Source: Patescibacteria group bacterium
GTDB lineage: Bacteria; Patescibacteriota; Patescibacteriia; UBA1558; GWA2-36-10
NCBI GenBank assembly: GCA_041665505.1
Contig: JBAYIR010000003.1
Coordinates: forward strand, 45,363-109,362
DNA length: 64,000 nucleotides
Direction: 5' to 3'
The notes under the pieces were generated by a model, which ran no database searches, was not told the origin of the DNA, and saw only the letters and a list, made by a program, of their open reading frames with translations. Every line of letters begins with the position of its first letter. Position 1 is the stretch's first letter. Both the position numbers and the translations under genes were made by a program. Below, piece after piece: positions 11,080 to 52,488 of this stretch.

Positions 11080-11099
11080 TAAAACAAGTAACATATAGT

Positions 11100-19769: not shown

Positions 19770-19797
19770 TTTATAGATTAATTTTCAGTAAATATAT

Positions 19798-22700
19798 ATG
19801 AAGTTTAAAAATTATAAACTAGTGAGCAAATGGCCATATTTGGCAACAATTTTTGCTTTAATTGTTGTTGTACCAATGAAAATTTCAGCCATATCTCCCT
19901 TGGTCAAACTCTTGGTTCAACCAATTTGGAATTTCTTTGTCTGGCCACTGACTTGGACCATTCAATTGGAGATGGAGCTTTTGCGTTTGGTAGCTAGGTA
20001 TAATAATTTTACTAACGAAGGAGGAGTAATGCTTGGTTGGATAGCACTTAGAGATTTATCCAATATGTTTTTTATTCTGATATTACTAGTTATTGCTTTT
20101 GCTACCATACTGAGAATTTCCAATTATGGTTACCAACAACTTTTGAAGAAAACTTTTATTATTGCTATTTTGATAAATTTTTCCAAGACCATTGTCGGTT
20201 TTATGATTGATGTGGTTCAAGTAGTGATGTTGACTTTTATCTCAGCTATAGATGAAGTGATGGCTGGGGGAGTAGTAGTAGCTATTGGTTTACATAAATT
20301 AACTCAAATTCAATTACCGGGAGACGGTGTACCGATGGAGGATTATGTTTTAGCTTTGGTTATGGGGGCAGTTTTTTTGGCTATTTTGGTGGTAGTGATG
20401 GGAGTGATGGTGATGATGCTAATGATGAGGATTGTGGCTTTGTGGGTAGCCATTGTTTTGGCTCCCTTGGCTTTTGTGGCTAGCATTTTTCCAGCTACCA
20501 AGTCTTTTTATTCTAGATGGATAAAAGAACTAGGCACCAATTTGGTAACTGGTCCGATGTTGGCGTTTTTTATGTGGCTGACTTTTACTATTGTCGGAAA
20601 TGGTGAGGCCTATCGTACTTTTTTAAATGATAATCCATCCATGCCAGGGCCAACAGAATTTTTGGGTACAGCCAATATGGTCAATTATGTAGTGGCTATT
20701 TCTTTGCTACTAATGGGTATCAAGATGGCTTCGGCTTCTGGAGCAGCAGGAGCTAGTTTTGCCGCCAAAGGCATGGGTATGATCAATAATACGGCTAGTA
20801 AATTGGCTAGGCGTTATCCAATGGCTGTTGGTAAGAGATTAGCTAACTGGGCTGCCGGCGGGGTGGTAGATAAAGATGGCAAGGCTAGGCCTTTATTACA
20901 GATGGGTGCAAATAGAATTATTAATAGTCGTTTGGGTAAAAGAATGAATTTAACTGAACGTGCTACAGATTTTAGTGAACGAGCGGATAGTTTACGGGCT
21001 TCAAATAATATATTGGCTCAGGCAGCTGGTAGAACTATGACTGGAGCAAGGGATTTCCAATGGAATAGAATTCCATTTTATGGTGGCAGAGTTCAACGTG
21101 GAGCTATGAAGGCTCAAGGTAAATATAGTGCTATGGTTGATGAATTTCAAGCTGAAGATGAGAAATTTATTAATCCAAAACAAAGAGAACAATTTGAAGC
21201 ATCTCAAGATAATGTTAAAGGCGGACCAAAATTTTTGTCCAGAGTGCCAATATTAAATCGGTCCAGACGTTTACGAGAGCTAGGTTTGGGTGATGCGGCT
21301 GGCAATGTTACTTCTTTAGGTGGAAATGCTGATAGGCGGGTGATGCAATCTAAAACTAAATTAGATAGAGGTGATATAGCAGATCAGGCAGAGGCAGATT
21401 TTGTTGCTGAAAATTTAGAAAGAGTTAATGATCAGTCAAGACTTGATAAATTGCATAAACAATGGGGTAGTACTTATAGGGATAAGGCAGATGTTGATAA
21501 GGATATAAATCAAGATGGTATTCAATCATTACTACGTGATCAAAAAGCTGATGCAGCTATTGATCCAGAGACTGGCTTGCCATATGAAGGAAGTAGATTA
21601 TTAATAGAAGGAGCTTTTCGTGATACTGACTCCGTAGGTTTGGATATTGGTAAAGCAATTTTATCAAAATTTAAAACAGCTAGAGTAGCCTGGTCAAAAG
21701 CTTTGGCACATGTTGCTCAAACTATGGGACACACCATGGAGCGAACAGAAGAGAATTTAAAAAATTATGGCACAGTGGCTGCTACAGAAATAAACCCAGC
21801 TACTGGCATGAGGGAAATTGGTTTTAATAATAAAAGTGTAGTAGAATTAAATGCTTATCATCCTATGGTTAAAGCTGTAGGATCAACTACTCAAGTTTAT
21901 CCTCAACAGGCAGTCAATCCATATAATGAGGCTATGGACCATCTAGAGCAAGGGGTAATTGATGGTTTTTATAATTTTGATGCCGCGTCTATAAATTATT
22001 TAAAACAAAGGTCTAAAGAGCCTGATAAGGATTTTGAAGTTAGAAAAAAAGCGGCTACAGATTCTTGGGAGCAAAATACAGCTTCTTTTGAGGCTGGGCA
22101 TATTACTGCAGAAGAGATGTATAAACACAGACGTCAAACCCTTGGTGTTTATACACCAGAGGAGATAGAAACTGAAGCTGCACCAATTAGAGCTAGAATG
22201 CAAAATTTAGAGGCCGGTCGAGCTAGTGGTAGTATTAGTGAAGAGCAATATAATGATGATTTAGAAATAGAGAAAAAAGCTTTGAAAGACTTATATGATT
22301 CTCCTATAGCACGTATAGCTGGAAATTCAGATGATATTGAATTAGCTATGCAAATTAGTAGCCGTTTGCCAGATAAACCAATTAGAGGCACAGCTCAATT
22401 AGAAAAGGTTGAAGATGCAGAAATTGAAGAAAAGACTAAGAAAAAGGTATCAGAAATATCCGAAACAGAGATAACTAAGAGAGTGAAAGCTAGCGGACAA
22501 ACATTCACTGATCCTGTAAATGAGAAACAGGCCAGAGCACGAGTCCGTCAGGATATGGAAGAAGAGATAAGAGGAAAAACACGTGATAGTTTGGTTCAAG
22601 AAAAAGGCACTAAGAGAGATGAAGAGCAAAAAAAGATAGATGATAAATATAATAAAGATTTAGCTAATTATAATACTGAAAGAGATGCTCTGAGACGCAC

Positions 22701-23274
22701 GATTGGAGAAGCTTTAACTAGTATAGCCAAAGATAAAGATGCTACTAGATTAGGTAATATACAAGTAGAAATTGATGGGGCTAGAAGTAGTAATGATACT
22801 GACAGATTGGCTAAATTATTAGCTGAACAAAATACCTTAACTAGATTACAAAATACTAAACGTCGAGAAGCTTTAGGTTTGGCTACGCCTAATACTAAAA
22901 ATATTTTTTCTCGAGCTTTATTAAAAGATGCTACAGACGGGGCAGATTATTCTAGGCTACAGGAGATGGATATTAATGTTGAATCGGAAAGACATTTATT
23001 TATAGAGTTAGCCAAAGTAGCTACTCCAGATCAACAAAGGCAGTTATTTCAAGAGGCTAACCCGGATCAACTTAAACTATTTGCTGAAGTTTTAGCTAGC
23101 ACCGGGCAAAAGTTGAATAAAGTTATTGTCGATAATTTAACTCCAGCGGTGAAGAAGGAGATATTTAGAATGATGCATACAATTAAGCTTACACAAGAAG
23201 GAGTTATGTCAGCGATAGAGATTAAGGAGTTTGTAGCTAAGATGACAGATGAACAATTAGCTAAGATCAAATAA
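19798..23274 (+). CDS. VirB6/TrbL-like polytopic membrane protein with a ~800-aa charged, coiled-coil-like C-terminal tail
   Basis: N-terminal ~330 aa contain 7 or more hydrophobic helices, including a Met/Val-rich helix (GVMVMMLMMRIVALWVAIVLAPLAF) reminiscent of VirB6/TrbL/PrgH. The remainder is K/E/R/D/Q-rich and low in hydrophobics. Confidence 0.5.
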   Translation: MKFKNYKLVSKWPYLATIFALIVVVPMKISAISPLVKLLVQPIWNFFVWPLTWTIQLEMELLRLVARYNNFTNEGGVMLGWIALRDLSNMFFILILLVIAFATILRISNYGYQQLLKKTFIIAILINFSKTIVGFMIDVVQVVMLTFISAIDEVMAGGVVVAIGLHKLTQIQLPGDGVPMEDYVLALVMGAVFLAILVVVMGVMVMMLMMRIVALWVAIVLAPLAFVASIFPATKSFYSRWIKELGTNLVTGPMLAFFMWLTFTIVGNGEAYRTFLNDNPSMPGPTEFLGTANMVNYVVAISLLLMGIKMASASGAAGASFAAKGMGMINNTASKLARRYPMAVGKRLANWAAGGVVDKDGKARPLLQMGANRIINSRLGKRMNLTERATDFSERADSLRASNNILAQAAGRTMTGARDFQWNRIPFYGGRVQRGAMKAQGKYSAMVDEFQAEDEKFINPKQREQFEASQDNVKGGPKFLSRVPILNRSRRLRELGLGDAAGNVTSLGGNADRRVMQSKTKLDRGDIADQAEADFVAENLERVNDQSRLDKLHKQWGSTYRDKADVDKDINQDGIQSLLRDQKADAAIDPETGLPYEGSRLLIEGAFRDTDSVGLDIGKAILSKFKTARVAWSKALAHVAQTMGHTMERTEENLKNYGTVAATEINPATGMREIGFNNKSVVELNAYHPMVKAVGSTTQVYPQQAVNPYNEAMDHLEQGVIDGFYNFDAASINYLKQRSKEPDKDFEVRKKAATDSWEQNTASFEAGHITAEEMYKHRRQTLGVYTPEEIETEAAPIRARMQNLEAGRASGSISEEQYNDDLEIEKKALKDLYDSPIARIAGNSDDIELAMQISSRLPDKPIRGTAQLEKVEDAEIEEKTKKKVSEISETEITKRVKASGQTFTDPVNEKQARARVRQDMEEEIRGKTRDSLVQEKGTKRDEEQKKIDDKYNKDLANYNTERDALRRTIGEALTSIAKDKDATRLGNIQVEIDGARSSNDTDRLAKLLAEQNTLTRLQNTKRREALGLATPNTKNIFSRALLKDATDGADYSRLQEMDINVESERHLFIELAKVATPDQQRQLFQEANPDQLKLFAEVLASTGQKLNKVIVDNLTPAVKKEIFRMMHTIKLTQEGVMSAIEIKEFVAKMTDEQLAKIK

Positions 23275-23284
23275 TTTATTTTAA

Positions 23285-24544
23285 ATGTTAATCAATGATT
23301 TAAAAACTCTACCCGAAGAAGTACAGGATTTTATTTGGGAAACTATGTCAGATGTAAATTATACTATATTTGATAAGTTTTCTTTTGATTTTGCGCAATT
23401 TGAATTTTTTAATAAATTGGAAGATGATATTTTATTGAAGAAAAAAAATATCATTGATTTGCCCAAAGATTTAGAAAAAATGCCTGGTCAGTTCAAAGGG
23501 GACTTTAGGGAGCTGGCTTTACAAATGGCTACAGAAATATTTTGGCCCTTACAGGAATATCTAGGCGGAGTAGATCGTCTCATTTTACGCTTAGGTGCCA
23601 AAGTGCCTAGGGCAGTTTTTTTGAAGAAAAAAAATACTACGGTAGTTGATAATCAACTACCAGAAGTTTTTCAAGGTAGGGTCAAAGACTTAATGGAAAA
23701 GTATGAAGAATTTAAAGACCTGCGTTTAACACCCAATAAATTGGTCAATGAAAAAGGCCTAATGGTCAATGCTAGCGTGCAAAATTGGATTAATGATTAT
23801 ATTCATTTTTTGGGAGCTGGTCAGCATAATTCTTTAGAAAGAGCAGTTTATCTTTCTAAAAGTCCAAATGTTTTGGAGTTGACTGATAAATATAGAGATA
23901 GTTTGCGTTATTTATTATTATCTTATGATGAGGGAGTAGAACTTTATTTTAATTATTCACAGGGCTTTTTGTTTATAGAGGAACAGCCAACCAAAAAATC
24001 CACAGATAAAGAAGCTATTTCCAATAAAATGGATTTCGATAAATTTTTAGGAGCTTTTAAAAATAAATTAACAACTTTTCAAAAACAACTTTTGCCTAGT
24101 GACATGATAATATCTGAATCCCAAGGAGATATTAATAAAGTTAGAGATATTCTTTGGCAGGCGATTGGTATTTCTGACAAAGACAAAGCAATTAGTTGTT
24201 TAAAACTCTTGGTGGAGAGGAAAACTCTTGATTTGATGATTAAAGAGGATAATAGGTTTAAAAATACTTTAAAGAGGTTTATTGGTATTAAATATGGTCA
24301 AAACATGGAAAGGTCTTTGGCTGAAAATATAGACCAATTGATAATTAGGCGTCTTTTTTTGGAAATGATTTTGTCTGATAAGTTGAGATTATCTGAAGAA
24401 GAACTTTATGTCACTGTTTTTTATCTGACTAATATTTTGCCAAATTCAGGACAGCTAATATATCTAGATGAAAAAGATCAAAAATTCAAATGGCGAGCTG
24501 TTCAAGTCAGTGGTAATAAATTTGCTTGGGTAGATAAAATATAA
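23285..24544 (+). CDS. Hypothetical protein (419 aa), co-oriented with the giant protein and VirB6-like genes
   Basis: Long ORF with host-like composition, 10-nt gap from the upstream gene; no motif recognised. Confidence 0.55.
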   Translation: MLINDLKTLPEEVQDFIWETMSDVNYTIFDKFSFDFAQFEFFNKLEDDILLKKKNIIDLPKDLEKMPGQFKGDFRELALQMATEIFWPLQEYLGGVDRLILRLGAKVPRAVFLKKKNTTVVDNQLPEVFQGRVKDLMEKYEEFKDLRLTPNKLVNEKGLMVNASVQNWINDYIHFLGAGQHNSLERAVYLSKSPNVLELTDKYRDSLRYLLLSYDEGVELYFNYSQGFLFIEEQPTKKSTDKEAISNKMDFDKFLGAFKNKLTTFQKQLLPSDMIISESQGDINKVRDILWQAIGISDKDKAISCLKLLVERKTLDLMIKEDNRFKNTLKRFIGIKYGQNMERSLAENIDQLIIRRLFLEMILSDKLRLSEEELYVTVFYLTNILPNSGQLIYLDEKDQKFKWRAVQVSGNKFAWVDKI

Positions 24545-25924: not shown

Positions 25925-26428
25925 ATGAAATACGAACTATCTTTTATTATTAGTCCAGCTATTCCTGAAACAGATCATTTATCTGTTAATCAGCAAGTTT
26001 TGGACTATCTCAAAGGCATCGAAGCTAATGTTACTCGAGCGCCTTACTTTATGGGCCGTAGAAAATTGGCTTATCCAATTGCCAAACAAAAACACGGTTT
26101 TTATGTTTGTCTAGAATTTACTACAGAGGATAAGGCTTCTCTGAAGGAATTAGACATTAAATTGAAGCACAACAATAGTTTGCTTCGTCATTTGATTATC
26201 AAATTGGAAAACCGTTCAGAGAGTGCAGCAGTTGATTTTTCTAAAATGGAAGAAAGAGATACTGATAAAGCCAAGGGTCGTCCGGTCAGAAAAGCTAGAG
26301 TGTCAGCCCCAAAAAGTTTTTCTAAAAAATCAGAACCTAGAAGTCGACAGGAAAGTAAAGTCAAAGTAAATTTAGATGATATTGATAAACAGCTAGATAG
26401 AATTTTGGATGAGCCAAAAGTTGATTAA
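25925..26428 (+). CDS. rpsF: 30S ribosomal protein S6 (with C-terminal extension)
   Basis: N-terminal MKYELSFIISP ... YFMGRRKLAYPI matches S6. Classic rpsF-ssb-rpsR synteny. Confidence 0.9.
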   Translation: MKYELSFIISPAIPETDHLSVNQQVLDYLKGIEANVTRAPYFMGRRKLAYPIAKQKHGFYVCLEFTTEDKASLKELDIKLKHNNSLLRHLIIKLENRSESAAVDFSKMEERDTDKAKGRPVRKARVSAPKSFSKKSEPRSRQESKVKVNLDDIDKQLDRILDEPKVD

Positions 26429-26446
26429 TTTTCTTAACATAATTAT

Positions 26447-26929
26447 ATGAATCTAAACAAAGCTATGATCATTGGTAATATAGTGCGCGATCCAGAAATG
26501 CGTACTACTCCCAGTGGTCAAAATGTCACTTCTTTTTCCATAGCTACCAATCGTGTTTGGAACGACACCAACGGTCAAAAGCAGGAAAGAGCCGAGTTTC
26601 ACAATATTGTCGCTTGGCGTAGATTAGCTGAAATTGCTAGTCAATATCTCAAAAAAGGAGCTAAAGTGTATATTGAAGGCAGACTACAAACCAGATCTTG
26701 GGATGATCCAAATGGTGTTAAAAGATATCGTACAGAAATTATTGCTGAAAATATGATCATGCTCGATAGGGCTGGTAATATGCCCAGCGGTGGTGGCGGT
26801 GGAGATTACAATACCGAGCAACCATCAATGGATCAAACTCCCACAGTAGATGTTAATCGCTCCAGCTCTTCAAATATTCCATCAAATGATGGAGAAGAAG
26901 AAATTAGCATTGAAGATATTCCATTTTAA
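26447..26929 (+). CDS. ssb: Single-stranded DNA-binding protein
   Basis: OB-fold signature (MIIGNIVRDPEMRTTPSGQNVTSFSIATNR ... FHNIVAWRRLAEI ... VYIEGRLQTRSWDD) and Gly-rich tail ending in the acidic DIPF. Confidence 0.95.
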   Translation: MNLNKAMIIGNIVRDPEMRTTPSGQNVTSFSIATNRVWNDTNGQKQERAEFHNIVAWRRLAEIASQYLKKGAKVYIEGRLQTRSWDDPNGVKRYRTEIIAENMIMLDRAGNMPSGGGGGDYNTEQPSMDQTPTVDVNRSSSSNIPSNDGEEEISIEDIPF

Positions 26930-26954
26930 AGATTAATTAAATTCAAATTTTAAT

Positions 26955-27173
26955 ATGCATACCAAACAAACTAGTAAATATTGCCACTTTTGTGTAAACA
27001 ATATGTCAGATATTGATTATAAGAATTGGCAACAATTAAAACGCTTTACTTCTTCTTATGGCAAGATTGTGCCAAAAAGAAGAAGTGGTGCTTGTTCCAA
27101 ACACCAAAGAAGCTTAGCCCAGGCTATCAAACGTGCTCGTTTTATGGCTTTACTTCCTTATGTAGCCAAATAA
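26955..27173 (+). CDS. rpsR: 30S ribosomal protein S18
   Basis: CHFC ... [51 protein letters not shown] is the S18 signature. Confidence 0.95.
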
Positions 27174-27177
27174 AATT

Positions 27178-27735
27178 ATGTTGTCACTCAGCGATTTAAA
27201 ATTGGGTAAAGTCATATCGGTTAATGACGAACCATATCAGATTGTGTTTAATCAACACATCAAAGTAGCTAGAGGTGGAGCAGTGGTAAAAACCAAGCTC
27301 AAGAATTTGATTTCTGGAAATACTTTAGAAAAAACATTTTCTGGTTCAGATAGTATAGCCGAAGCAGATATTACTCGTCGTAAAGCGAATTTTCTTTACC
27401 AGCAAGAAGAGGATTTTCATTTTATGGACAATGAAAGTTTTGAACAATTTCAATTTCCTAAAAATGATTTAGGAGATTTAGTAAAATATCTTATTGATGG
27501 TCAAGAGGTTGATGTCTTGGTTTTCAACGATGTGCCAGTGTCAATTGCTTTGCCTACCAAAATTACCCTAGAAGTCAAATCAGCTCCAGAAGGAGTAAAA
27601 GGTAATAGTGCTGGGGCTATTACTAAGACAGTAATTTTAGAAAACGATTTAGAAGTGAGAACTCCTTTATTTATTAAGTCAGGTGAAAAGATAGTTATCA
27701 ATACAGAAACAGGGGAATATGTAGGTCGGGCTTAA
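27178..27735 (+). CDS. efp: Elongation factor P
   Basis: LSDLKLGKVISVNDEPYQIV ... KVARGGAVVKTKLKNLISGN (KOW-like N-domain) plus two OB domains; 185 aa. Confidence 0.9.
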   Translation: MLSLSDLKLGKVISVNDEPYQIVFNQHIKVARGGAVVKTKLKNLISGNTLEKTFSGSDSIAEADITRRKANFLYQQEEDFHFMDNESFEQFQFPKNDLGDLVKYLIDGQEVDVLVFNDVPVSIALPTKITLEVKSAPEGVKGNSAGAITKTVILENDLEVRTPLFIKSGEKIVINTETGEYVGRA

Positions 27736-27756: not shown

Positions 27757-27789
27757 ATTACCTCTCAGTTTATCTGGGGGTAATTTTTT
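27757..27789 (+). terminator. Possible terminator after efp
   Basis: Imperfect hairpin (tacc...ggta, cag/ctg) followed by a T-run. Confidence 0.35.
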
Positions 27790-27801
27790 GTTTAATTATG
27801 G

Positions 27802-27836
27802 TTGGCTATATACATATAAATATGTTATAATATAAT
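27802..27836 (+). promoter_or_regulatory. Candidate promoter of the T4SS-like operon
   Basis: TTGGCT, 18 nt, TATAAT (twice, overlapping), about 55 nt upstream of the 27888 start. Confidence 0.3.
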
Positions 27837-27887: not shown

Positions 27888-29294
27888 ATGGATTCTTCAA
27901 ATAATAAAGTAAATGATATTTTAGACACTGCTAATTGGTCTGATGCTCTTTTAGTTAAAGATGCCAAAGGCAATTTAGGGTCTTTAAAACTGGTTCTAAA
28001 AGATAATTCTCCTAAAATTTCACCCTCAATTAATGCTGTTTCTGAAGGTAGTTTGGCTCCTAAAGACGCTAGTTTCGCTCCTTCACAAAATATTATTGGT
28101 AATTCTCAGACTAAATCAGAGCTGGTTTTTCACCCAGATGATAAAGAAGAACTAGATTTTTTTGCTCAAAATATAGTCAAAGATGATAGTAAAAAATATA
28201 GTGTTGAGAAAATAGTAGACCGTATTATTGCCAAACAATCTTTGGATTTGGATGAGAAAAATAAAAAGATTTTCGTTAATATTTTGTACAATTTTTTTAG
28301 AAATAGAAAAAGTACAATTATTACCAGAGAGCTTTTGACAAATAGTGTCTTGATAAAAAACAAAAAAATAGATACTGAAGTAATTGATATCATTTTGTCT
28401 GTTATCAAAGGTATTAAAAATAAAATTGATGCTGTTGGTGGTTTGGTGGTCAATCAAACTGAGCTAAAAATTGAGCAAAATTTATCAAGCGCCAAAGAAA
28501 AAAAACATCTTTTACAGACTCCACCAGTTTTAGTCAAGCCGTTTAGCCAAGAAGAAAAGATTTTAGATTTGGAAGATTCAAAAGACAGCTCATTATCAGC
28601 TCAAGATGAAGTCAAAATGGCGCTCGGTCAGTTACAGCCAACAGTAGTAAAGGAAAGCAAGGTAGAAACCAAAGCGCCAGTTGTCAAAGCGCCAGCCGCT
28701 GGATTTTCTATTCCGGCTCCTCTTGAAAAGTTATCTAAACCAGATAAACCTGAGCTAAAAGAAGAAATTATAAAACCAGTTGCTCAGCCAGAAATTAAAG
28801 CTAGCTTAGTAGTGCAACAAGATGAGCCAGAGCTAGCCAAAGTGGAAACATCGCTACCAAAAGTATTAAGATCAAACCTAAATCAAACGCCCAAAAAACC
28901 AATTAGCGACGTAGTCAGCCCCATCAAAGAAGTCAAAAAACCAAACATCCCAGTAGGAGCAAAAAATGTTTTAATGGGGGCAGTACAAGAATTACAATCA
29001 TTTGATTTAGTTGGTTTTCGTCGTTTGGGTAGTACAGCCAATGAGCGTGTTCAGAAAATATTTGATAAAATAAATTTATTAGAACAAGAATCATATACTA
29101 AAAAAGCTCAAGGTATTGCTGCTTGGAGAGATAGTGAAGTCTATAAATTATATTTACAATTAGGCACGGAGAGTATGATAGCTGGCCAAGAAGTAGCCAA
29201 TTTTATACTGGAGCGCCAAAGTAAAAATCAAAATACACTTAGTATAGAAGAGTTTTCAGCTATCTCGGATTTAAACAAACAATTAAGATTTTAG
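27888..29294 (+). CDS. Hypothetical soluble protein with Lys/Pro-rich low-complexity central region; first gene of the T4SS-like operon
   Basis: 468-aa ORF, no TM. Central PKVLRSNLNQTPKKP / KEVKKPNIP region. A 3-nt gap to the next gene suggests co-transcription. Confidence 0.6.
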   Translation: MDSSNNKVNDILDTANWSDALLVKDAKGNLGSLKLVLKDNSPKISPSINAVSEGSLAPKDASFAPSQNIIGNSQTKSELVFHPDDKEELDFFAQNIVKDDSKKYSVEKIVDRIIAKQSLDLDEKNKKIFVNILYNFFRNRKSTIITRELLTNSVLIKNKKIDTEVIDIILSVIKGIKNKIDAVGGLVVNQTELKIEQNLSSAKEKKHLLQTPPVLVKPFSQEEKILDLEDSKDSSLSAQDEVKMALGQLQPTVVKESKVETKAPVVKAPAAGFSIPAPLEKLSKPDKPELKEEIIKPVAQPEIKASLVVQQDEPELAKVETSLPKVLRSNLNQTPKKPISDVVSPIKEVKKPNIPVGAKNVLMGAVQELQSFDLVGFRRLGSTANERVQKIFDKINLLEQESYTKKAQGIAAWRDSEVYKLYLQLGTESMIAGQEVANFILERQSKNQNTLSIEEFSAISDLNKQLRF

Positions 29295-29297
29295 TTT

Positions 29298-29774
29298 ATG
29301 CCAGAAAGGTTTATAGTGCCACAATTTATAGATGCCGAAGATAAAATCTGGGGACCAATTACTGTTCGTCAATTTGTGATTATATTGGTTGGTTTACTTT
29401 TTGGATTTATTGCTTATAAACTTTCAGATTTAACTTTGTTTATTTTCTGGATGGTGATCATTGTGATTTTTGTAGTGTTATTTGCTTTTTATAAAATCAA
29501 TGGAGCACCTTTCCATATTTTTGCTATCAATTTTATTGAAACCACTTTTAAGAAACCGGCTCTTCGTGTTTGGCATAAACAATATGTTAAAGTAGAAAAA
29601 GTTAAATCAAAAGATGAAATGCAAGTCAAAGAAGGTCCAGTGGCCCCCAAAAAGATTGCCTCTAGTCGGAAATTATCAGAGCTTTCTTTGATTATTGATA
29701 CCGGAGGGGTATATAAAGGAGAAAGACGAGCTAATGAAGAAAATAACGTTAGTTTTTCAGATAAAAATATTTGA
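29298..29774 (+). CDS. PrgI/VirB3-like small two-TM T4SS protein
   Basis: N-terminus FIVPQFIDAEDKIWGPITVRQFVIILVGLLFGFIAY matches the PrgI-family pattern (..P.d.d..edki.g.lt.RQ..yl). Two adjacent TM helices. It sits immediately upstream of VirB4, as in Gram-positive T4SS. Confidence 0.6.
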   Translation: MPERFIVPQFIDAEDKIWGPITVRQFVIILVGLLFGFIAYKLSDLTLFIFWMVIIVIFVVLFAFYKINGAPFHIFAINFIETTFKKPALRVWHKQYVKVEKVKSKDEMQVKEGPVAPKKIASSRKLSELSLIIDTGGVYKGERRANEENNVSFSDKNI

Positions 29775-29809
29775 TATTTTAGTGAACTCAATATAAATTA
29801 TAAATTACT

Positions 29810-30490
29810 ATGAAAAGTAAAAAATTAACTGGTAACCAAGCAGCTACAGCCACTCAAAAATATTTAGATATTGCTGAGATTAGAGATGATTTGGTAGTTT
29901 TAAATGACGGCACAGTCCGAGGAGTTTTATTGGTGGCCTCTATAAATTTTGATTTGAAATCAGAAGATGAACAAAGGGCTATTATTGGTAATTATGTTAA
30001 TTTTTTAAACACCCTAGATTATCCATTGCAAGTTATTATACAATCTCGCCCTTTAAATATTGATGACTATCTTGTTAGATTAAAAAAGATGGAAAGGGAG
30101 CAAACTAATGAATTATTGCGCATGCAGACCGCTGATTATAGAGGTTTTGTGGAAGAACTACTAACTTTAGAAAAGATAATGAGTAAGAAATTTTATGTAG
30201 TAGTCCCTTATAGTGCGCTCAGTGATAAAAGAATAAACTTTAAAAGTCGTTTTGCCTCTGTTTTTTCTCCTGCTAAAATAGTTAGTTTGAGTCGCAAACG
30301 TTTGGAAGAATTTAGTGATCAATTAGAAAAGAGATGCAATTTTATTGGAGCGGGTTTGGGTAGTTTGGGCTTAAGGAGCCAGCGTCTTAGCACTCAAGCT
30401 TTGATTGAGCTATATTATAATAGTTATAATCCAGAGTTATTTCAAAAACAACCAATGGATGATATAAATAAATTAACCATCGAAACATAA
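29810..30490 (+). CDS. VirB4/TraC-family N-terminal domain encoded as a separate ORF (split VirB4, part 1)
   Basis: LVVLNDGTVRGVLLVASINFDLKSEDEQRAIIGNYVNFLNTLDYPLQVIIQSRPLNIDDY is the conserved VirB4/PrgJ/TcpF N-terminal block. Its stop TAA overlaps the next ATG (TAATG at 30488-30492). Confidence 0.7.
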   Translation: MKSKKLTGNQAATATQKYLDIAEIRDDLVVLNDGTVRGVLLVASINFDLKSEDEQRAIIGNYVNFLNTLDYPLQVIIQSRPLNIDDYLVRLKKMEREQTNELLRMQTADYRGFVEELLTLEKIMSKKFYVVVPYSALSDKRINFKSRFASVFSPAKIVSLSRKRLEEFSDQLEKRCNFIGAGLGSLGLRSQRLSTQALIELYYNSYNPELFQKQPMDDINKLTIET

Positions 30491-32415
30491 TGTTTGGTTT
30501 TAACAAAATAAAACAAGCGCAAAAAGTTTCCAAAATTGACAAAGACTTAGAAAGATTGTCAGGTAATTCTCGACCGCAGATATCTCCTCAGGAACAAGTC
30601 ACTAAAGAAAAGAAACTGATTGAAGCGGAAAGAGTCTTTAGAGAGGGGATTGTCTCAGTTAGAGATATTGTGGCTCCAGCCGCTTTAAAGATTGATCCAC
30701 AATATTTGCAACTAAATAATCTTTTTGTCCGGACTTTATTTGTCATGACTTATCCACGTTATGTAACTATTGGTTGGTTTGCTCCGATTATCAACGAAAG
30801 TTTGACTTTGGATATTTCTATGTTTTTTTATCCTTTGGATATCCAAATGGTCCTTAAACAATTGAAAAATAAAGTCGGTACTATGGAAGCTCAGATTATA
30901 TCTGATCATGAAAAAGGAGCACCTCGTGATCCTATTTCGGAGACCGCTTTGCAAGATATAGAAGGTTTACGAGACGGCCTGAGTCAGGGGACGGAAAAGT
31001 TTTTTCAATTTGCTCTTTATGTCACTATTTATGCTAAAGATAAAAATGAACTTGATTTAGCTAGCGACAGAATAGAAAATCTTTTGGGTATGCAGTTGAT
31101 TTATTCTCGTCGGGCCTTATTTCAAGCCGAGCAAGGTTTTAATTCTACTTTACCTTTAGGTAATGATGAATTGGGCATTGCTACCAATATGAATAGTTCT
31201 CCTATTGCTTCATCATTTCCTTTTGTTTCCTCTGAGCTGACTTCTGATGATGGTATTTTATATGGTATTAATCGACACAATAACAGTTTGATATTATTTG
31301 ATAGATTTTCTTTACAAAATGCCAATATGGTGGTTTTTGCTACTTCTGGGGCTGGTAAAAGTTATGCTATCAAATTGGAAGTTTTACGTTCTATGATGCT
31401 GGGATCGGATGTTATTATTATTGACCCAGAAAATGAGTATCAGCATCTTTCTGAAGCGGTTGGTGGCGCTTATATCAATGTATCTTTAAATTCGGAAAGC
31501 AAACTAAATCCTTTTGATCTGCCTAGAGGTGTAGGAGGGGACAGTAAGCCAGAAGACATCATTAGAAGTGCTATTATTACCCTTAAGGGCTTAATACGTC
31601 TAATGATTGGTGATATTACCAATGGTGAAGATTCACTCTTGGATAGGGCTATACTAGAAACTTATGCCAAAAAAGATATTACGCCGGCTAGTGATTTGGC
31701 CAATATCGAAGCACCTATTATGTCTGATTTGGAAGAAATATTACTTAGTATGGAGGGTGGTGAAGATATGGCTCTACGTATTAAAAAATATACCGAAGGT
31801 ACTTTTTCCGGCTTGTTTAATAGTCCAACCAATATCAAAGTAGATAATCAATTGGTAGTATTTTGTATTAGAGATTTAGAAGATGAGCTTCGTCCGATAG
31901 CTATGTATATGATTATGACTCACATCTGGAATATTATCAGGAGTGAGCTCAAGCGTAGAATGTTGGTAGTAGATGAAGCTTGGATCATGATGAGGCATGA
32001 AGATAGTGCCAAATTTATGTATGCTTTGGTCAAACGCTGTCGTAAATATTATTTGGGAGTGACGACTATTACCCAAGATGTCAACGACTTTTTGACTTCT
32101 ACTTATGGTAACGCCATTGTTAATAACTGTGCTCTGCAGTTACTGCTCAAACAAACTCCAGCCGCAGTCAATTTGGTTCAACAAACCTTTATGTTGACCG
32201 AAGGAGAAAAATATCTTTTACTAGAAGCTGGCTTGGGAGAGGGTATATTTTTTGCTGGGGCCAAACACGCTGCTATAAAAATTCAAGCTTCCTATGCTGA
32301 ACACCAAATCATTACTTCTGATCCAAGACAGCTGATAGAGATAGAAGAAGCAAAAAAGGAATTTGAAGAGCAGATGATGGCCGAAGCAGAAGAGAATCCC
32401 AATCAAAAAAAATAG
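30490..32415 (+). CDS. VirB4/TraC-family T4SS ATPase, C-terminal ATPase domain (split VirB4, part 2)
   Basis: Walker A FATSGAGKSYAIK, Walker B MLVVDEAW, and later ITQDVNDF motif; 641 aa. Confidence 0.85.
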   Translation: MFGFNKIKQAQKVSKIDKDLERLSGNSRPQISPQEQVTKEKKLIEAERVFREGIVSVRDIVAPAALKIDPQYLQLNNLFVRTLFVMTYPRYVTIGWFAPIINESLTLDISMFFYPLDIQMVLKQLKNKVGTMEAQIISDHEKGAPRDPISETALQDIEGLRDGLSQGTEKFFQFALYVTIYAKDKNELDLASDRIENLLGMQLIYSRRALFQAEQGFNSTLPLGNDELGIATNMNSSPIASSFPFVSSELTSDDGILYGINRHNNSLILFDRFSLQNANMVVFATSGAGKSYAIKLEVLRSMMLGSDVIIIDPENEYQHLSEAVGGAYINVSLNSESKLNPFDLPRGVGGDSKPEDIIRSAIITLKGLIRLMIGDITNGEDSLLDRAILETYAKKDITPASDLANIEAPIMSDLEEILLSMEGGEDMALRIKKYTEGTFSGLFNSPTNIKVDNQLVVFCIRDLEDELRPIAMYMIMTHIWNIIRSELKRRMLVVDEAWIMMRHEDSAKFMYALVKRCRKYYLGVTTITQDVNDFLTSTYGNAIVNNCALQLLLKQTPAAVNLVQQTFMLTEGEKYLLLEAGLGEGIFFAGAKHAAIKIQASYAEHQIITSDPRQLIEIEEAKKEFEEQMMAEAEENPNQKK

Positions 32416-32471
32416 ATTTAATATTATTTATATAAATTATATTTTATTCCAGCATAAATTAATAAAAAAAT

Positions 32472-33023
32472 ATGGATAAAGACAAAAGAAAAAAAATATT
32501 ATGGGCCGTAGCAATTGTGATATTACTTTTGGCTCTTTTACTTTGGGTACTGAGAACCTCAGATAAAAATCCTAATGTTAATGAAAATAATAATACACCA
32601 CCAGTTTTTGTCCCACCTAGCACCAATATAGAGTATGATCCTTTGGCAGTACCAAAACAAAATTCTACAGAATTTTCGGCTATCAATTTAGCTAAATCTT
32701 ATATTGCTAGATTTGGTTCTTGGTCTACTGATAATCAAGGAGCCAATCTTAAGGAATTATTGCCTCTAAGTAGCCCCAAAATGCAGGAATATTTGGCTAG
32801 TATTGAATTGAATTTTGCCAAACAGGAGTTTAGCGGCAATACTACGAAGAGTCTGAGTGCTAAGATTATTAATATTAATGATAATGAGGCGGAAATATTG
32901 GTTAATACTCAAAAAATTAATACTAAGGCCAATTTAGAGCAGGAAGTTTATTATCAAGAAGCTTTAGTCAAATTAATTAAATCAGGAGAAACGTGGTTAG
33001 TAGATCAAGTTGAGTGGAAATAA
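32472..33023 (+). CDS. VirB8/PrgL-like bitopic protein (N-terminal TM plus NTF2-like domain)
   Basis: TM helix ILWAVAIVILLLALLLWVL, then a ~150-aa domain with NTF2-like features (AKSYIARFGSWSTDN ... ETWLVDQVEWK). Confidence 0.4.
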   Translation: MDKDKRKKILWAVAIVILLLALLLWVLRTSDKNPNVNENNNTPPVFVPPSTNIEYDPLAVPKQNSTEFSAINLAKSYIARFGSWSTDNQGANLKELLPLSSPKMQEYLASIELNFAKQEFSGNTTKSLSAKIININDNEAEILVNTQKINTKANLEQEVYYQEALVKLIKSGETWLVDQVEWK

Positions 33024-33036
33024 TTTTATTTAATTT

Positions 33037-33522
33037 ATGCCAGGAGGTTTTGATACGCCATTTGAACAGACCAGAGTCCAATTGCAGTTAGATGAGGAGG
33101 AACAAGCTCAAAATCCTGCCACCAAAGCTACGCAGGAAGCTTTTAGAAGGCGCTTGTTAGCCGAAAAAAAAGCTTTGAAAGAAAAAGCCACTGATGCAAT
33201 TAAAAAGAAATTAGCTCAGAAAGTAGGCACGCGTTTAGTTTTGCGGGTAGTAGGGGCAGCTTGTGCATCTTCCATAATATTTCTTATTGTTACTTGGCTT
33301 ATTTGGACAGTTCAAGCTTTGGCTGGTAATTTGATGGGTTCCAAGTGGATACCAGAATTGGAATGGTGGGAAATTATCCTTTGGGGCATATTGACCATTA
33401 TAATATTAGCCATTGTAATAATACTAATAACATTATCGTCAATAGCTATAGTATTTTCCAATCCACTTTTGGCTATTAGTATCTTGGGAACAATAATTTT
33501 TGAGGCGGTCACAGGTTCATAA
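33037..33522 (+). CDS. Small membrane protein (hydrophilic N-terminus plus 3 TM) in the T4SS-like operon
   Basis: 161 aa with a charged coiled N-terminus, then three hydrophobic helices. Confidence 0.5.
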   Translation: MPGGFDTPFEQTRVQLQLDEEEQAQNPATKATQEAFRRRLLAEKKALKEKATDAIKKKLAQKVGTRLVLRVVGAACASSIIFLIVTWLIWTVQALAGNLMGSKWIPELEWWEIILWGILTIIILAIVIILITLSSIAIVFSNPLLAISILGTIIFEAVTGS

Positions 33523-33537
33523 AATAAATTAAGCGTT

Positions 33538-34758
33538 ATGGATAAGAAAAAAATTTTAATGGTAGTGGCTTTTATTCTCCTAGTGTTGGGCTTAAGCTTT
33601 GCTTTGTATTGGGTATTTTTTAGATCCACTCCACCAGTGACACCTCCAGACGATTTTAATGCTGGTAATTTACCAGGTATTGGTGATGGTAATGTTACTA
33701 TTGTCAATCAAAATACCAATACTAATAATAATGGTTTACCTTGGCAAATATATGTTCCAGATAAAGTTTCAGATGTGGCTAGTGGAGGACTAACCAAAGT
33801 TGATGAATTGGTAAACAATGAAGTGAAAGGTTTGACTACTAGCCCCAATGGCTTACAATATTATGATACCAATACTCAAAAATTTTATCGTATCAATGAA
33901 AATGGACAGATTGAAGAATTGAGTAATAAGGCATTCTATAAAGTAGATACTGTGACTTGGGCTGGTAATGGTGATAAGGCTATTTTGGAGTACCCAGATG
34001 GGTCAAATATTTTATATAATTTTAGCACTGGTAAACAAGTAACTTTACCAGCCGAAATGGAAGATTTTTCTTTTGATGCTTCTAATAGCAAAATTGCTGC
34101 CAAATGGATTGGTCCTAGTGAAGATGACAATTGGCTAGTAGTCTCCAATGATGATGGTTCAGGTATGGCTTTGATTGAGCCTTTAGGAGATCAAACACAC
34201 ACTACTTTTGTTGGCTTTTCTCCTGATAATCAAGTAGCGGTGATGCATAGTAAATATGTTGATGCCCAAAGGCAAGAGGTCTATCCGCTTGGCTTAAATG
34301 GCGAATCATTTAAGTCTTTTATAGTCAATGGAGCTGGTTTTGATTATGATTGGTCTCCAGAAGGTAATAGTATGATTTATAGTGTTTATAATGGAGACAC
34401 AAACTATAATCCTAATCTTTGGGTGACCAACGGTCAGACCAGTGAATTGGGTGACATCAAAGTATCTCTCAATATAGCTACTTGGCCAGACAAATGCACT
34501 TTTGCTGGAGAGGACGCTATGTATTGTGCAGTACCACAAGGGCTACCTCGCGGAGCAGGACTCTATCCAGAAATAGCTGATCGTTATCCAGATAATTTTT
34601 ATTATATAAATTTGAATTCCGGCACCAAAAATTTGATTGCCTCTCCAATAGGAGCTAGCGGTAGTTATACTGCCCATAATCTTTTTAGATCACCAGATGG
34701 ATCCTTATTATATTTTACTGATGGCAGTGGAAATTTACAAAGTATTAGATTAAAATAA
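33538..34758 (+). CDS. Membrane-anchored beta-propeller (TolB/PD40-like) protein
   Basis: N-terminal TM, then repeated WSPEGNSMIYSV / FSPDNQVAVMHS / WAGNGDKAILEY blades typical of PD40/TolB propellers. Confidence 0.5.
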   Translation: MDKKKILMVVAFILLVLGLSFALYWVFFRSTPPVTPPDDFNAGNLPGIGDGNVTIVNQNTNTNNNGLPWQIYVPDKVSDVASGGLTKVDELVNNEVKGLTTSPNGLQYYDTNTQKFYRINENGQIEELSNKAFYKVDTVTWAGNGDKAILEYPDGSNILYNFSTGKQVTLPAEMEDFSFDASNSKIAAKWIGPSEDDNWLVVSNDDGSGMALIEPLGDQTHTTFVGFSPDNQVAVMHSKYVDAQRQEVYPLGLNGESFKSFIVNGAGFDYDWSPEGNSMIYSVYNGDTNYNPNLWVTNGQTSELGDIKVSLNIATWPDKCTFAGEDAMYCAVPQGLPRGAGLYPEIADRYPDNFYYINLNSGTKNLIASPIGASGSYTAHNLFRSPDGSLLYFTDGSGNLQSIRLK

Positions 34759-34761
34759 ATT

Positions 34762-35553
34762 ATGTTTATGAAAAACAAAAATTTAATTATTTTAGGATTT
34801 CTGATAGTTTCTTTCTCAATATTCTTATCTAGCATCAATGTTCAAGCAGCTGGATCGGCCACAGATTTGACCTATAGACCCAATGTGCCATTACCTATTA
34901 CTATTGGGGGCATCAATTTTGCCGGCACCAATGTGATCACTGGCGGAGATTTTTTAGCCAAATATATTGTGGCTATTTATAGCTATGGAGCAGGCTTTGC
35001 CGGAATTATAGCGATGTTTATGCTAGTTATTGCTGGTTGGAAATGGCTAATGGCTGCTGGTAATGCTCAAAAAATCAGCGGCGCCAAGGATATTATAAAT
35101 GGCGTGCTAATTGGTTTGGCTTTACTTTTCGGTGGACAATTACTACTAAGACAAATTAGTCAAAATTTTAGTTCCGTGCAGAGCTTGAGTGTCAAATTAC
35201 CAGAAGCAGCTCTAAGAGCTATCTCAGCTAACCAGGCCACTGTAGACTGGTGTCAGGAAAAGAAAGGAGCTGATGGAGATGGTGGTGAGTGCTCTGATTA
35301 TGTCACGGAAGCAAATTGTGCAAATGATGTTTGTGTTTTTTTAGAAAATCCAAGAGATTTTGATAATCGTTGTATACCAGATTTTGATAGAGCTGGGATT
35401 TTTGAAAGATGTAGTGATTGTCCTAATCGCTGTGATTGTGAGGATAATTATTCCTCGATTTTTTATAGGAATATAGATGCTTGTGATTGTGATGAGGATG
35501 GTTTATGGCCAGACACAAATGGCTGTGATGGCATTGTAGAAATACCTACTTAG
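34762..35553 (+). CDS. VirB2/TrbC-like pilin with a Cys-rich C-terminal extension
   Basis: Signal peptide ending VQAAGS. Two hydrophobic helices separated by a short polar loop (YIVAIYSYGAGFAGIIAMFMLVIAGWKWLMAAGNAQKISGAKDIINGVLIGLALLFGG), which is VirB2 topology. A ~110-aa tail follows with 14 Cys and a DGDGGEC motif. Confidence 0.5.
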   Translation: MFMKNKNLIILGFLIVSFSIFLSSINVQAAGSATDLTYRPNVPLPITIGGINFAGTNVITGGDFLAKYIVAIYSYGAGFAGIIAMFMLVIAGWKWLMAAGNAQKISGAKDIINGVLIGLALLFGGQLLLRQISQNFSSVQSLSVKLPEAALRAISANQATVDWCQEKKGADGDGGECSDYVTEANCANDVCVFLENPRDFDNRCIPDFDRAGIFERCSDCPNRCDCEDNYSSIFYRNIDACDCDEDGLWPDTNGCDGIVEIPT

Positions 35554-38470: not shown

Positions 38471-38558
38471 GGAGAGTTGGCAGAGCGGTCGAATGCGGCG
38501 GTCTTGAAAACCGTTGAGCCGAAAGGTTCCGAGGGTTCGAATCCTTCACTCTCCGCCA
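38471..38558 (+). tRNA. tRNA-Ser (anticodon TGA), long variable arm, encoded CCA
   Basis: Manual cloverleaf: 7-bp acceptor GGAGAGT/ACTCTCC, anticodon loop CTTGAAA, long extra arm, T-arm GAGGG-TTCGAAT-CCTTC. Confidence 0.9.
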
Positions 38559-38692
38559 TTCGATTCCGTCGCGTATGACGCGACTTCACTCATGGCCTTC
38601 GGCCACTTATTTGGTATATAAAGTGATAAGTTGTCGAATGTCCTGAGCGATCCCGAGCATAGCGAGGGAGAGTCGAAGGGCAGGAGTATATT
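38553..38692 (+). repeat. Repeat R1 copy 1 (~95-nt well-conserved core within a ~140-nt span), immediately 3' of tRNA-Ser(TGA); second copy at 62189-62320
   Basis: About 93% identity over attccgtcgcgtatgacgcga ... ggccttcggccacttatttggtatataaagtgataagtt.tcgaatgtcctgagcga. Contains a gtcgcgt-atg-acgcgac hairpin and a ggcc-ttc-ggcc hairpin. Confidence 0.7.
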
Positions 38693-38727
38693 ACCGATAG
38701 GCAGTAGTTACTTTGTTTTTTTATCAT

Positions 38728-38803
38728 GTCCTCGTAGCTCAATGGATAGAGCGTTTGGTTGCGGTCCAAAAGGCTGCAGGTTCGATTCCTGCCGGGGACA
38801 CCA
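38728..38803 (+). tRNA. tRNA-Arg (anticodon reads GCG), encoded CCA
   Basis: Manual cloverleaf: acceptor GTCCTCG/CGGGGAC, D-stem GCTC/GAGC, anticodon stem TTTGG/CCAAA with loop TTGCGGT, T-arm GCAGG-TTCGATT-CCTGC. Confidence 0.8.
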
Positions 38804-38846
38804 CACTTCGCTAAAGTAAGGTTGTTTATTAAAATTTATTTATTTA

Positions 38847-39186
38847 GGAGAGGTGGCAGATCCCGCAAGGCGGGACCCCGCTACGCGGGGGTGGCTTAAA
38901 AAGCTTACTGTTATGTATAAAGTTTATATTTTACAAAGTATTAAATATAAAATATATTATATAGGGCATACTAAAGATATAAATGATAGAATGAGCAGAC
39001 ATAATAGTGGGGGATCGTCTTATTCAAAAAAATTTATGCCTTGGAAATTGATTTATACTGAATTTTATAATACTAAATCGGAAGCTTATAAAAGAGAGTT
39101 AGAAATTAAAAGTTATAAAGGTGGTATAAAATTTAAAAAGTTGATAGGAGTTTGGGAAAAATAGTTTATTAAAATTTATTTATCAT
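38847..39186 (+). mobile_element. GIY-YIG nuclease cassette inserted into the 5' region of tRNA-Ser(GCT), duplicating ~35 nt of target
   Basis: attaaaatttatttat plus ggagaggtggcaga occurs both at 38825-38860 and at 39168-39200 (the true tRNA start). Between the two copies lie the conserved GC-rich double hairpin and an 83-aa GIY-YIG ORF. Confidence 0.45.
38913..39164 (+). CDS. Small GIY-YIG (URI-domain) nuclease, UPF0213/COG2827-like
   Basis: YKVYILQSIKYKIYYIGHTKDINDRMSRHN ... YKRELEIKSYKGG shows the GIY-(x10)-YIG and R..HN motifs. The upstream in-frame ATG at 38853 lies in the GC hairpin, so it is unlikely to be the start. Confidence 0.75.
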   Translation: MYKVYILQSIKYKIYYIGHTKDINDRMSRHNSGGSSYSKKFMPWKLIYTEFYNTKSEAYKRELEIKSYKGGIKFKKLIGVWEK

Positions 39187-39276
39187 GGAGAGGTGGCAGA
39201 GTGGTCGAATGCGGCACCCTGCTAAGGTGTTATCCGGGAAACCGGATCGAGGGTTCGAATCCCTCCCTCTCCGCCA
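39187..39276 (+). tRNA. tRNA-Ser (anticodon GCT), long variable arm, encoded CCA
   Basis: Manual cloverleaf: acceptor GGAGAGG/CCTCTCC, anticodon stem GCACC/GGTGT with loop CTGCTAA, long extra arm, T-arm GAGGG-TTCGAAT-CCCTC. Confidence 0.9.
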
Positions 39277-52230: not shown

Positions 52231-52488
52231 CTATAAAATTGCGTTATGATAATATAGACATTTGGCTAGTTTTGAGCTAAAATGTTATTGACAATTAGGT
52301 GTAAAAACCGATGCCTAAACCCTAGAAATTCTAGGGCATGGTATAAAAAACTCGTTGAAAATATTGAACTCCGCGTTCAGTGACTTTTCAACGAGTCATA
52401 TCGGGAAACTGGTATGGGGCCGTAAGGCCTAGCTGGCGCGGGGTTTTATGTTTGCGTCAGCTGATAATTAATAAGTAAGTAAAATATT

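Follow-up and report, generated by a model that had tools for sequence, protein, structure and literature searches.

An unusual Gram-positive-like type IV secretion system (T4SS) with an essential pilin array is needed for the epibiotic growth of Southlakia epibionticum, and that system has no recognizable coupling protein or relaxase (Wang 2023, PMC10633639). A later survey of thousands of genomes described a Patescibacteria VirB4 clade related to MPF-FATA (Quinonero-Coronel 2025, PMC12102498); the T4SSs concerned are chromosomal, contain TrsD and PrgI, have VirB2-like pilins near virB4 and usually no relaxase. According to the same survey, TrsD plus VirB4 is the commonest T4SS arrangement in Patescibacteria, a pilin-core family adjoins virB4 in more than 1100 assemblies, VirB8 homologues are uncommon and occur almost exclusively in ABY1, VirB6 is seldom found in some classes, and ABY1 T4SS loci lie near comF, recG and radA (PMC12102498). 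Here we analyse a 64-kb window of one patescibacterial genome (contig JBAYIR010000003.1 of assembly GCA_041665505.1), to which all gene absences reported below refer, and within it an eight-gene operon at 27888-35553. We consider this region to be, probably, a chromosomal, vertically inherited T4SS operon of an ultra-small, Komeilibacteria-like (ABY1-type) Patescibacterium that serves as a host-contact filament or display apparatus.

In kind the operon corresponds to the system on which epibiotic growth of Saccharibacteria depends. A sequence-only reading of this DNA had regarded it as an unusual apparatus with non-standard components; the T4SS itself is published (PMC10633639, PMC12102498), and as a system already described in 2023-2025 it is not made new by this locus. 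What the locus does add is of modest value: pilins that universally bear tails and swap modules, a propeller with two genomic contexts, structural support for a VirB8-like subunit, and two large unannotated families. Reviews call the function of these T4SSs "completely unknown" and treat effector delivery or nucleotide import as speculative (PMC12857230, PMC11665869), and a preprint reports tubes, possibly T4SS pili, at the parasite-host interface (bioRxiv 10.64898/2026.06.21.733656).

Operon layout and the VirB4 core

The open reading frame (ORF) list places eight co-oriented ORFs between efp and recG, preceded by two candidate control signals:

27762-27780, + strand: terminator-like hairpin 3' of efp (consensus match)
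27802-27836, + strand: sigma-70-like promoter candidate 5' of g1 (consensus match, 10/12)
27888-29294, + strand: g1, soluble protein, 468 aa
29298-29774, + strand: g2, PrgI/VirB3-like protein, 158 aa
29810-30490, + strand: g3, TrsD/TraD (TraC-like) protein, 226 aa
30490-32415, + strand: g4, VirB4-family ATPase, 641 aa
32472-33023, + strand: g5, VirB8/PrgL-like bitopic protein, 183 aa
33037-33522, + strand: g6, small membrane protein, 161 aa
33538-34758, + strand: g7, anchored, predicted 7-bladed beta-propeller, 406 aa
34762-35553, + strand: g8, VirB2-type pilin-like protein with a Cys-rich tail, 263 aa

The gene number and coordinates agree with the sequence-only reading, although the gaps, which it gave as 3-50 nt, run from -1 to 56 nt (3, 35, -1, 56, 13, 15 and 3 nt in order from g1 to g8), the stop of g3 and the start of g4 sharing 1 nt. 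The hairpin and promoter candidate (27762-27836) probably mark the operon start; promoter-like sites in the region number 41 against 32 expected from shuffling, which makes the match weak evidence for a g1 promoter. Upstream of g1 lie rpsF, ssb, rpsR and efp (25925-27735), identified by eye from their translations, and the matching Pfam families are found on their orthologues in two syntenic loci (L092 and L093). Downstream of g8 and convergent with it is a 692-aa RecG-like helicase, also identified by eye, whose orthologues bear RecG_wedge, DEAD and Helicase_C.

The order rpsF-ssb-rpsR-efp-g1-PrgI-TrsD-VirB4-g5-g6-propeller-pilin(1-2)-recG recurs in Ca. Komeilibacteria metagenome-assembled genomes and many metagenome contigs, and the efp and recG flanks are kept in Komeilibacteria-type relatives down to ~57% propeller identity. 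Loci with 43-45% propeller identity retain all eight families, with the pilin before the propeller and DsbA and RadA after it, and radA and comF lie near the operon in relatives. Comparison of gene order across related genomes thus recovered the same eight-gene arrangement in Komeilibacteria and other Patescibacteria contigs, and because orthologues keep this order the eight ORFs are, on sequence grounds, not chance ORFs. [quoted passage not shown] Komeilibacteria or Patescibacteria. Orthologue identity is highest for g4 (~91%) and g3 (86%), followed by g7 (77%), g2 (73%), g5 (61-69%), g1 (54-61%), g8 (52-60%) and g6 (40-53%), a gradient that indicates purifying selection weakening towards the surface parts.

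The VirB3-TrsD-VirB4-VirB8-like core consists of g2 to g5. The first of these was taken for a PrgI/VirB3-like protein, and it does match PF12666 (PrgI) well above the cut-off (E 4.2e-11; 43.7 bits, cut-off 27), with two transmembrane (TM) helices in hydrophobic segments within residues 17-74. The ATPase g4 matches the CD1110 VirB4 model NF045971 at E 1.6e-103 (347 bits, cut-off 325) over model positions 141-729 of 752 and PF19044 at E 1.3e-28, and its translation reads Walker A GAGKS and Walker B VVDEAW; by these matches it is an MPF-FATA/CD1110-type VirB4 ATPase without the N-terminal domain. The neighbouring g3 matches NCBIfam TrsD (E 1.7e-8), aligns to positions 92-235 of 894 in the VirB4_plasma model (E 2.2e-9) and to positions 18-122 of 752 in the CD1110 VirB4 model, and has orthologues that bear PF26593 TraC-like. 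Read together, the alignments make g3 the detached counterpart of the VirB4 N-terminal domain, so that g3 and g4 tile one VirB4, as the term "split VirB4" in the sequence-only reading implied. The split is kept in every relative examined, with a spacer of 2 to ~225 nt, and is therefore not a frameshift. Both g2 and g3 are directly 5' of g4, which is 66% identical to other Patescibacteria VirB4 proteins and 37% to the best plasmid VirB4.

The fourth member of the core was modelled by AlphaFold2 with a pLDDT of 85.3. The model comprises an N-terminal helix (3-30), a linker and an alpha+beta NTF2-like domain (65-182), which predicts a bitopic protein with an N-terminal TM helix and an extracytoplasmic NTF2-like domain. 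Its top Foldseek matches in the PDB are TcpC (3ub1, 5.6e-5), PrgL (7aed, 5.9e-5, 20% identity) and R388 TrwG/VirB8, and a profile of 40 homologues finds pCF10 PrgL as its best PDB sequence (E 0.0056), in keeping with an hhalign comparison to the same protein (probability 70%, E 3.9e-5). No Pfam family matched g5, the VirB8 family included, and generic NTF2 folds such as the CaMKII hub are only ~10-fold worse than the VirB8-like matches in Foldseek; the assignment therefore rests jointly on fold, topology and gene position. These results support the earlier description of g5 as a VirB8-like NTF2-fold protein, and the locus offers a confidently modelled VirB8/PrgL-like subunit of a kind that the 2025 survey detected rarely.

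Compared with the S. epibionticum system (SEML1_0006-0019) and the T4SSs of the 2025 survey, the operon is likewise patescibacterial and chromosomal, with an MPF-FATA/CD1110 VirB4 and an adjacent TrsD. It further shares with the surveyed systems PrgI/VirB3, a VirB2-like pilin beside virB4, the lack of a nearby relaxase or type IV coupling protein (T4CP), and an ABY1-type recG neighbourhood. It differs in having one pilin gene against the six-gene array of S. epibionticum, in its VirB8/PrgL-like protein, whereas none was found by structure in S. epibionticum, and in the absence from the operon of a recognizable VirB6 and a VirB1-like hydrolase. With the Gram-positive conjugation systems of pGO1/pIP501 (TrsC-TrsD-TrsE) and pCF10 (PrgH-PrgI-PrgJ-PrgK-PrgL) it shares a collinear VirB3-(TrsD)-VirB4-VirB8-like core; pCF10 PrgJ passes the CD1110 cut-off, as g4 does, and g5 resembles PrgL in fold and, less firmly, in profile. 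Unlike them, the operon is without relaxase, T4CP, PrgK-type hydrolase, PrgH/VirB6 and LPXTG adhesins, has a VirB2-type pilin-like gene, and is chromosomal and lineage-syntenic rather than carried on a mobile element.

The closest VirB4 in PLSDB (37% identity, also without the N-terminal domain) is on a megaplasmid of Pontibacillus sp. ALD_SL1 (NZ_CP062975, 351-361 kb; locus L091, 4486-10800). There a TrsD-like protein (31% identity to g3) and a PrgI-like protein precede VirB4, and two tandem pilin-like genes match the hidden Markov model of the window's pilin core at 5e-12 and 2e-8. At 145-151 aa these pilins are short; their Cys residues are in the N-terminal part and a C-terminal tail is missing. 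The cluster, which has no propeller, g1 or g6 homologues, adds a polytopic VirB6-like protein of 779 aa and an M23 peptidase of 1050 aa. As pilin, PrgI, TrsD and VirB4 occur together there, the module, VirB2-like pilins included, is not confined to Patescibacteria among monoderm T4SSs.

Such likenesses also bear on the idea of a conjugative MPF-FATA T4SS, borne by an integrative and conjugative element (ICE), that sits in the chromosome and exports DNA to recipients. In its favour are the passing of the CD1110 equivalog cut-off by g4, the collinearity of PrgI-TrsD-VirB4-VirB8 with pCF10 and pGO1-type operons, the closest plasmid relative, a cluster of PrgI-like, TrsD-like and pilin-like genes on a Bacillota megaplasmid, and an integrase-bearing mobile region ~10 kb downstream (46077-47387). 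However, neither relaxase, T4CP, VirB1 nor VirB6 was found in or beside the operon, the operon GC content (0.33-0.38) is inside the range of the adjacent chromosome, and both flanks recur down to ~57% propeller identity, as described above. Further, recG, a DUF5673 gene, three tRNAs and an ABC transporter separate the operon from the mobile region. Domain scans of the window found no integrase, relaxase, T4CP or VirB11 adjoining the operon; none of the window's ORFs with room for such a domain showed VirD4, VirB11 or relaxase, in agreement with what the sequence-only reading had said of VirD4 and VirB11. On synteny, GC content and the lack of relaxase and T4CP in the window we reject a conjugative element as extremely unlikely, and the operon is most probably not a conjugation machine.

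The pilin-like protein and its tail

The last gene, g8, encodes a signal peptide (~1-29), a TM hairpin (~68-133) whose loop is rich in Lys, a linker and an acidic Cys-rich tail (164-263); hydropathy segments fall at 5-31, 68-100 and 105-133. The hairpin loop reads AAGNAQKISGAKD, and the g8 layout, in which a two-helix hairpin joined by a short basic loop comes after the signal peptide, is that of VirB2/TrbC pilins. Searched alone, g8 is a weak match to the Mbov_0395 pilin-like family (E 0.0015), and the family gives a stronger case; among 37 members of its family, 29 match PF18895 (best 1.2e-7) and two match TrbC/VirB2. The core of signal peptide, hairpin, basic loop and second helix is strongly conserved, and the gene sits 2.3 kb 3' of g4. 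Comparison by hhalign showed no similarity to the small membrane proteins PrgF or PrgG of pCF10, and the Pam pili of a preprint entitled "Novel Pilus System in CPR" are unrelated, being Ig-fold donor-strand pili.

Canonical VirB2/TrbC pilins have a mature size of ~70-120 aa and are little more than a hairpin. Mature g8 is larger than that, at ~230 aa, with ~130 aa of linker and Cys-rich tail beyond the hairpin, and the enlargement is general in the clade: in related loci each of the 45 distinct pilin-core ORFs has a tail (93-323 aa), and for 42 of them the number of Cys is even. The sequence-only reading had recognized the pilin core, the tail and its DGDGGEC motif (171-177), all of which stand; it had counted 14 Cys in a 110-aa tail, where we find 12, all within 164-255, and a tail of 100 aa. 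Acidic residues dominate this tail (D+E 21%, K+R 8%). Identity between g8 and its nearest homologues is 71-97% in the hairpin core and 12-59% in the tail, while the 12 tail Cys are fixed across the nine closest homologues, a pattern that indicates a disulfide scaffold with a fast-evolving surface.

The slot of g8 can hold other modules. In the two syntenic loci L092 and L093 it is occupied by a pilin fused to a VanY/M15 peptidase domain, followed in L092 by a second Cys-rich pilin and in L093 by one further ORF. Tandem pilin paralogues are present in many relatives, and g8 is the only pilin-core gene that a search detected in the window.

The propeller, its companions and alternative roles

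The g7 protein has a TM helix (3-27), a disordered linker (39-71) and a propeller domain (~85-405) with invariant Cys320 and Cys330, and its structural model is a membrane-anchored, extracytoplasmic 7-bladed beta-propeller. Its best structural matches are oligogalacturonate lyase, the propeller of S9 peptidases and WD40 proteins; PD40-like motifs are weak, the Pfam PD40 score is below the cut-off, and a profile search against the PDB gave nothing significant. TolB propellers have six blades. An all-beta propeller outside the cytoplasmic membrane and weak PD40-like motifs are what g7 has in common with TolB/PD40 propellers, but it differs in its own TM anchor, its seven blades and the lack of a TolB N-terminal domain, and TolB is not among its top structural matches. 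Of the earlier phrase "membrane-anchored TolB/PD40-like propeller", the anchored propeller is thus retained and the TolB likeness is not.

A single-sequence scan of a genome collection with g7 found only four relatives, and an alignment-based metagenome scan was then used; the counts that follow are of non-redundant, assessable loci with sequence up to 10 kb on each side. Where the propeller is at least 55% identical to g7, T4SS genes lie upstream in all 23 assessable loci and a divergent type IV pilus operon in none. Below 55% identity, T4SS genes are upstream in 5 of 29 loci and a divergent type IV pilus operon (PilM...PilB-PilC) in the other 24, and 17 loci of this group have ComF as their downstream neighbour and 11 have DsbA. 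Examples are L006, L047, L054-L056, L061-L066 and L073-L075, among others, in which the propeller (~10001-11240) is divergent to a complete type IV pilus operon (PilM...PilB-PilC-pilin) and is followed by a ComF-like gene. A DsbA/thioredoxin-family gene is directly 3' of the propeller and next to Cys-rich pilin genes in L007 and L008 (11254-11910), L042-L046, L049, L050 and others, and in L067 and L068 a propeller-DsbA-pilin-RadA block stands beside a type IV pilus operon. The distribution of loci shows that the g7 propeller is not a T4SS-specific subunit and suggests a general envelope partner common to the type IV pilus/competence neighbourhood. The sequence-only reading had singled it out as an accessory of the T4SS operon, a view that the 24 of 29 distant loci contradict, and caution is warranted before the propeller is listed among T4SS subunits, for which more evidence would be needed.

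The same distribution raises the question of whether g7 and g8 belong to an envelope module of their own, made up of propeller, disulfide-rich surface protein and DsbA, that merely lies downstream of the T4SS genes, the g8 hairpin being only a membrane anchor. The 24 distant propeller loci beside divergent type IV pilus operons, with no VirB4 within up to 10 kb on each side, would fit this arrangement, as would the block in L067 and L068 and the bulky tails of all clade pilins. We nevertheless think it improbable: the pilin core is PF18895/TrbC-related and of the type found next to virB4 in more than 1100 Patescibacteria assemblies (PMC12102498), the Pontibacillus VirB4 cluster also holds pilin-core genes, and the pilin array inside the S. 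epibionticum T4SS cluster is essential (PMC10633639). The g6/g7 and g7/g8 gaps of 3-15 nt, with no terminator-like sites, moreover suggest co-transcription.

The remaining two proteins match no named family. No TM segment is predicted by hydropathy in g1, whose conserved N-terminal domain is joined by a Lys/Pro/Glu-rich linker (~191-360) to a C-terminal domain of ~110 aa, likewise conserved, that ends in ...LNKQLRF. Searches of Pfam (including 17 orthologues), NCBIfam and PDB profiles gave no match, a weak Mg296 hit (E 0.29) being dismissed as noise. It is directly 5' of PrgI in every T4SS-context locus. A search for its family matches 2048 representative clusters at E<=1e-3, of which 1388 reach E<=1e-10. 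Most of the matches run through the C-terminal domain, and in proteins that range from ~120 to 680 aa this domain invariably forms the very end of the chain; on this sequence evidence the domain defines a large family outside all Pfam models.

In g6 a charged cytoplasmic N-terminus of ~60 aa precedes 2-3 TM segments (hydrophobic at 65-99 and 108-161), so that the earlier "3-TM protein" is right as to a membrane protein and only partly as to the number of segments. It bears the conserved motif AT.VGLIVTY...Q...GN and is kept at its position in at least 23 loci, with an N-terminal region of varying length; profile searches of Pfam and the PDB gave no match. As a VirB6 it was rejected, having 2-3 TM segments against five or more, no Pfam or PDB match and an hhalign probability of 0.2% to pCF10 PrgH; by position alone g6 is a candidate stand-in for the missing VirB6. 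The texts of PMC12102498 and PMC10633639 make no mention of g1, g6 or VanY pilin tails, nor does the word "propeller" occur in either, and TolB, WD40 and Cys-rich pilin tails are unmentioned in PMC12102498.

The gene content also invites comparison with DNA uptake. The ComB system of Helicobacter pylori has a minimal set with VirB2, B3, B4 and B8-like proteins and works without VirD4, VirB11 or relaxase. It is a diderm system with VirB6, B7, B9 and B10, and the likeness is one of gene repertoire. A ComB-like machine, acting with its type IV pilus/ComF/RadA/RecG neighbourhood, would bring in nucleic acid from the host or the environment and export nothing. The window's VirB2, B3, B4 and B8-like proteins without T4CP, VirB11 or relaxase parallel the ComB set, a precedent cited in PMC11665869, where T4SS import is also proposed for CPR bacteria, which do not synthesize nucleotides. 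The neighbourhood is suggestive too, with recG directly downstream, radA and comF nearby in relatives and in the ABY1 literature (PMC12102498), and the propeller-DsbA-pilin block adjoining type IV pilus operons and comF in sister lineages. However, recG is convergent and hence not co-transcribed, and the upstream ssb carries no weight since rpsF-ssb-rpsR is arranged this way universally. Deleting comEC in S. epibionticum ends competence yet leaves the organism viable, while the T4SS is essential, so that its essential role there is not transformation (PMC12857230). Further, a ComB-type step crosses an outer membrane, which monoderms lack, and ComEA, ComEC, ComF and RadA were not found when the window was searched, nor were VirB1, PilB, PilC, PilM or DsbA. 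Together these points leave nucleic-acid uptake rather unlikely as the role of this operon.

A proposed host-contact apparatus in its genomic setting

Under the host-contact interpretation that we favour, g2, g3, g4 and g5, perhaps with g6 in place of VirB6, would form a monoderm-type membrane translocon. The ATPase g4 would extract g8, processed by signal peptidase, from the membrane, to be polymerized into a VirB2-like filament or presented at the surface. Both termini of conjugative pilins, as in F and T pili, face outward; the g8 C-terminal tail would therefore be displayed outside, where disulfides could form. Acidic, fast-evolving and with six predicted disulfides, the tail is probably a module for host-surface recognition or adhesion; its rapid divergence suggests a role in host recognition, and the tails are candidates for host-specificity determinants. 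The VanY/M15 peptidase in the same slot of sister loci makes the pilin core look like a scaffold for interchangeable extracellular modules, and VanY-bearing pilins suggest host-wall attack as an alternative role there. The whole apparatus would contact the host cell and move macromolecules.

Several observations weigh against this interpretation. First, the translocon model leans on g6, a protein without family match, and no VirB6 homologue was found by Pfam or by hhalign of g6 against PrgH; no cell-wall hydrolase is encoded within the operon either. Second, g8 alone falls below the PF18895 threshold (E 0.033; 14.7 bits against a cut-off of 26.6), tails of 93-323 aa may be hard to pack in a canonical VirB2 helix, and the tail-bearing pilin-like proteins could be membrane-anchored display proteins that never polymerize. 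Third, no filament is known from any ABY1 organism. Fourth, the linkage of the propeller to type IV pili elsewhere means that part of the operon may not belong functionally to the T4SS. Finally, the window spans only 64 kb, and a T4CP or relaxase may lie elsewhere in the genome; many Patescibacteria have distal T4CP homologues (PMC12102498).

A broader proposal is that the ABY1-type pilin core may have turned into a modular display scaffold, every copy carrying either a fast-evolving disulfide-rich knot or a VanY/M15 module, with DsbA and the propeller maturing or partnering the modules, and that two filament systems cooperate in one host-contact and uptake apparatus. The pilin/propeller/DsbA block common to the T4SS locus and the type IV pilus/comF locus across lineages hints at such cooperation, and we offer the proposal tentatively, as a possibility that we ourselves doubt. 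To our knowledge, a pilus of conjugative type that bears adhesin or enzyme domains all along its length has not been described.

Elsewhere in the window, three consecutive large genes at 11100-24544 (+), of 2889 aa (CBM_4_9 match only), 1158 aa and 419 aa, are essentially unannotated and probably encode giant surface proteins, ~3 kb upstream of the T4SS operon; TSP3-repeat proteins are nearby (1774-3405 and 10240-11079). Downstream, tRNA genes Ser-tga, Arg-gcg and Ser-gct lie at 38471-39276, with a small ORF between them (38853-39164) that is GIY-YIG nuclease-like by eye. Next to this tRNA cluster, ~40000-63000, part of it low in GC (0.27-0.31), is probably an integrated mobile element or prophage remnant, with the following genes:

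42826-43827: DUF4238 protein
44708-45982: C5 DNA methylase
46077-47387, - strand: large serine recombinase
53439-54902, - strand: DEAD/terminase-like protein
55289-56563, - strand: N6/N4 methylase
59310-62015: superfamily 1 helicase with AAA_30 and UvrD_C, no relaxase domain match

The product of a gene at 48553-52080 (+), 1175 aa long, combines Peptidase_M23 with four PKD domains and six LVIVD repeats and carries a Por_Secre_tail, the C-terminal sorting domain of the type IX secretion system, which is typical of Bacteroidota. The gene sits in a stretch with a GC content of 0.40-0.48 against ~0.33 elsewhere and looks like a horizontal transfer or an assembly chimera. A LOOT RNA (RF03000) at 52312-52430 (+), scoring 89 bits against a gathering score of 46, is 3' of this high-GC gene and 5' of two small ORFs.

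Few machines have been shown to be indispensable to the epibiotic lifestyle of the very abundant, mostly uncultured Patescibacteria; their T4SS is one, and the locus analysed here is a compact, well-conserved ABY1-type example of it, with g1 and the propeller representing two large unannotated families that travel with such loci.

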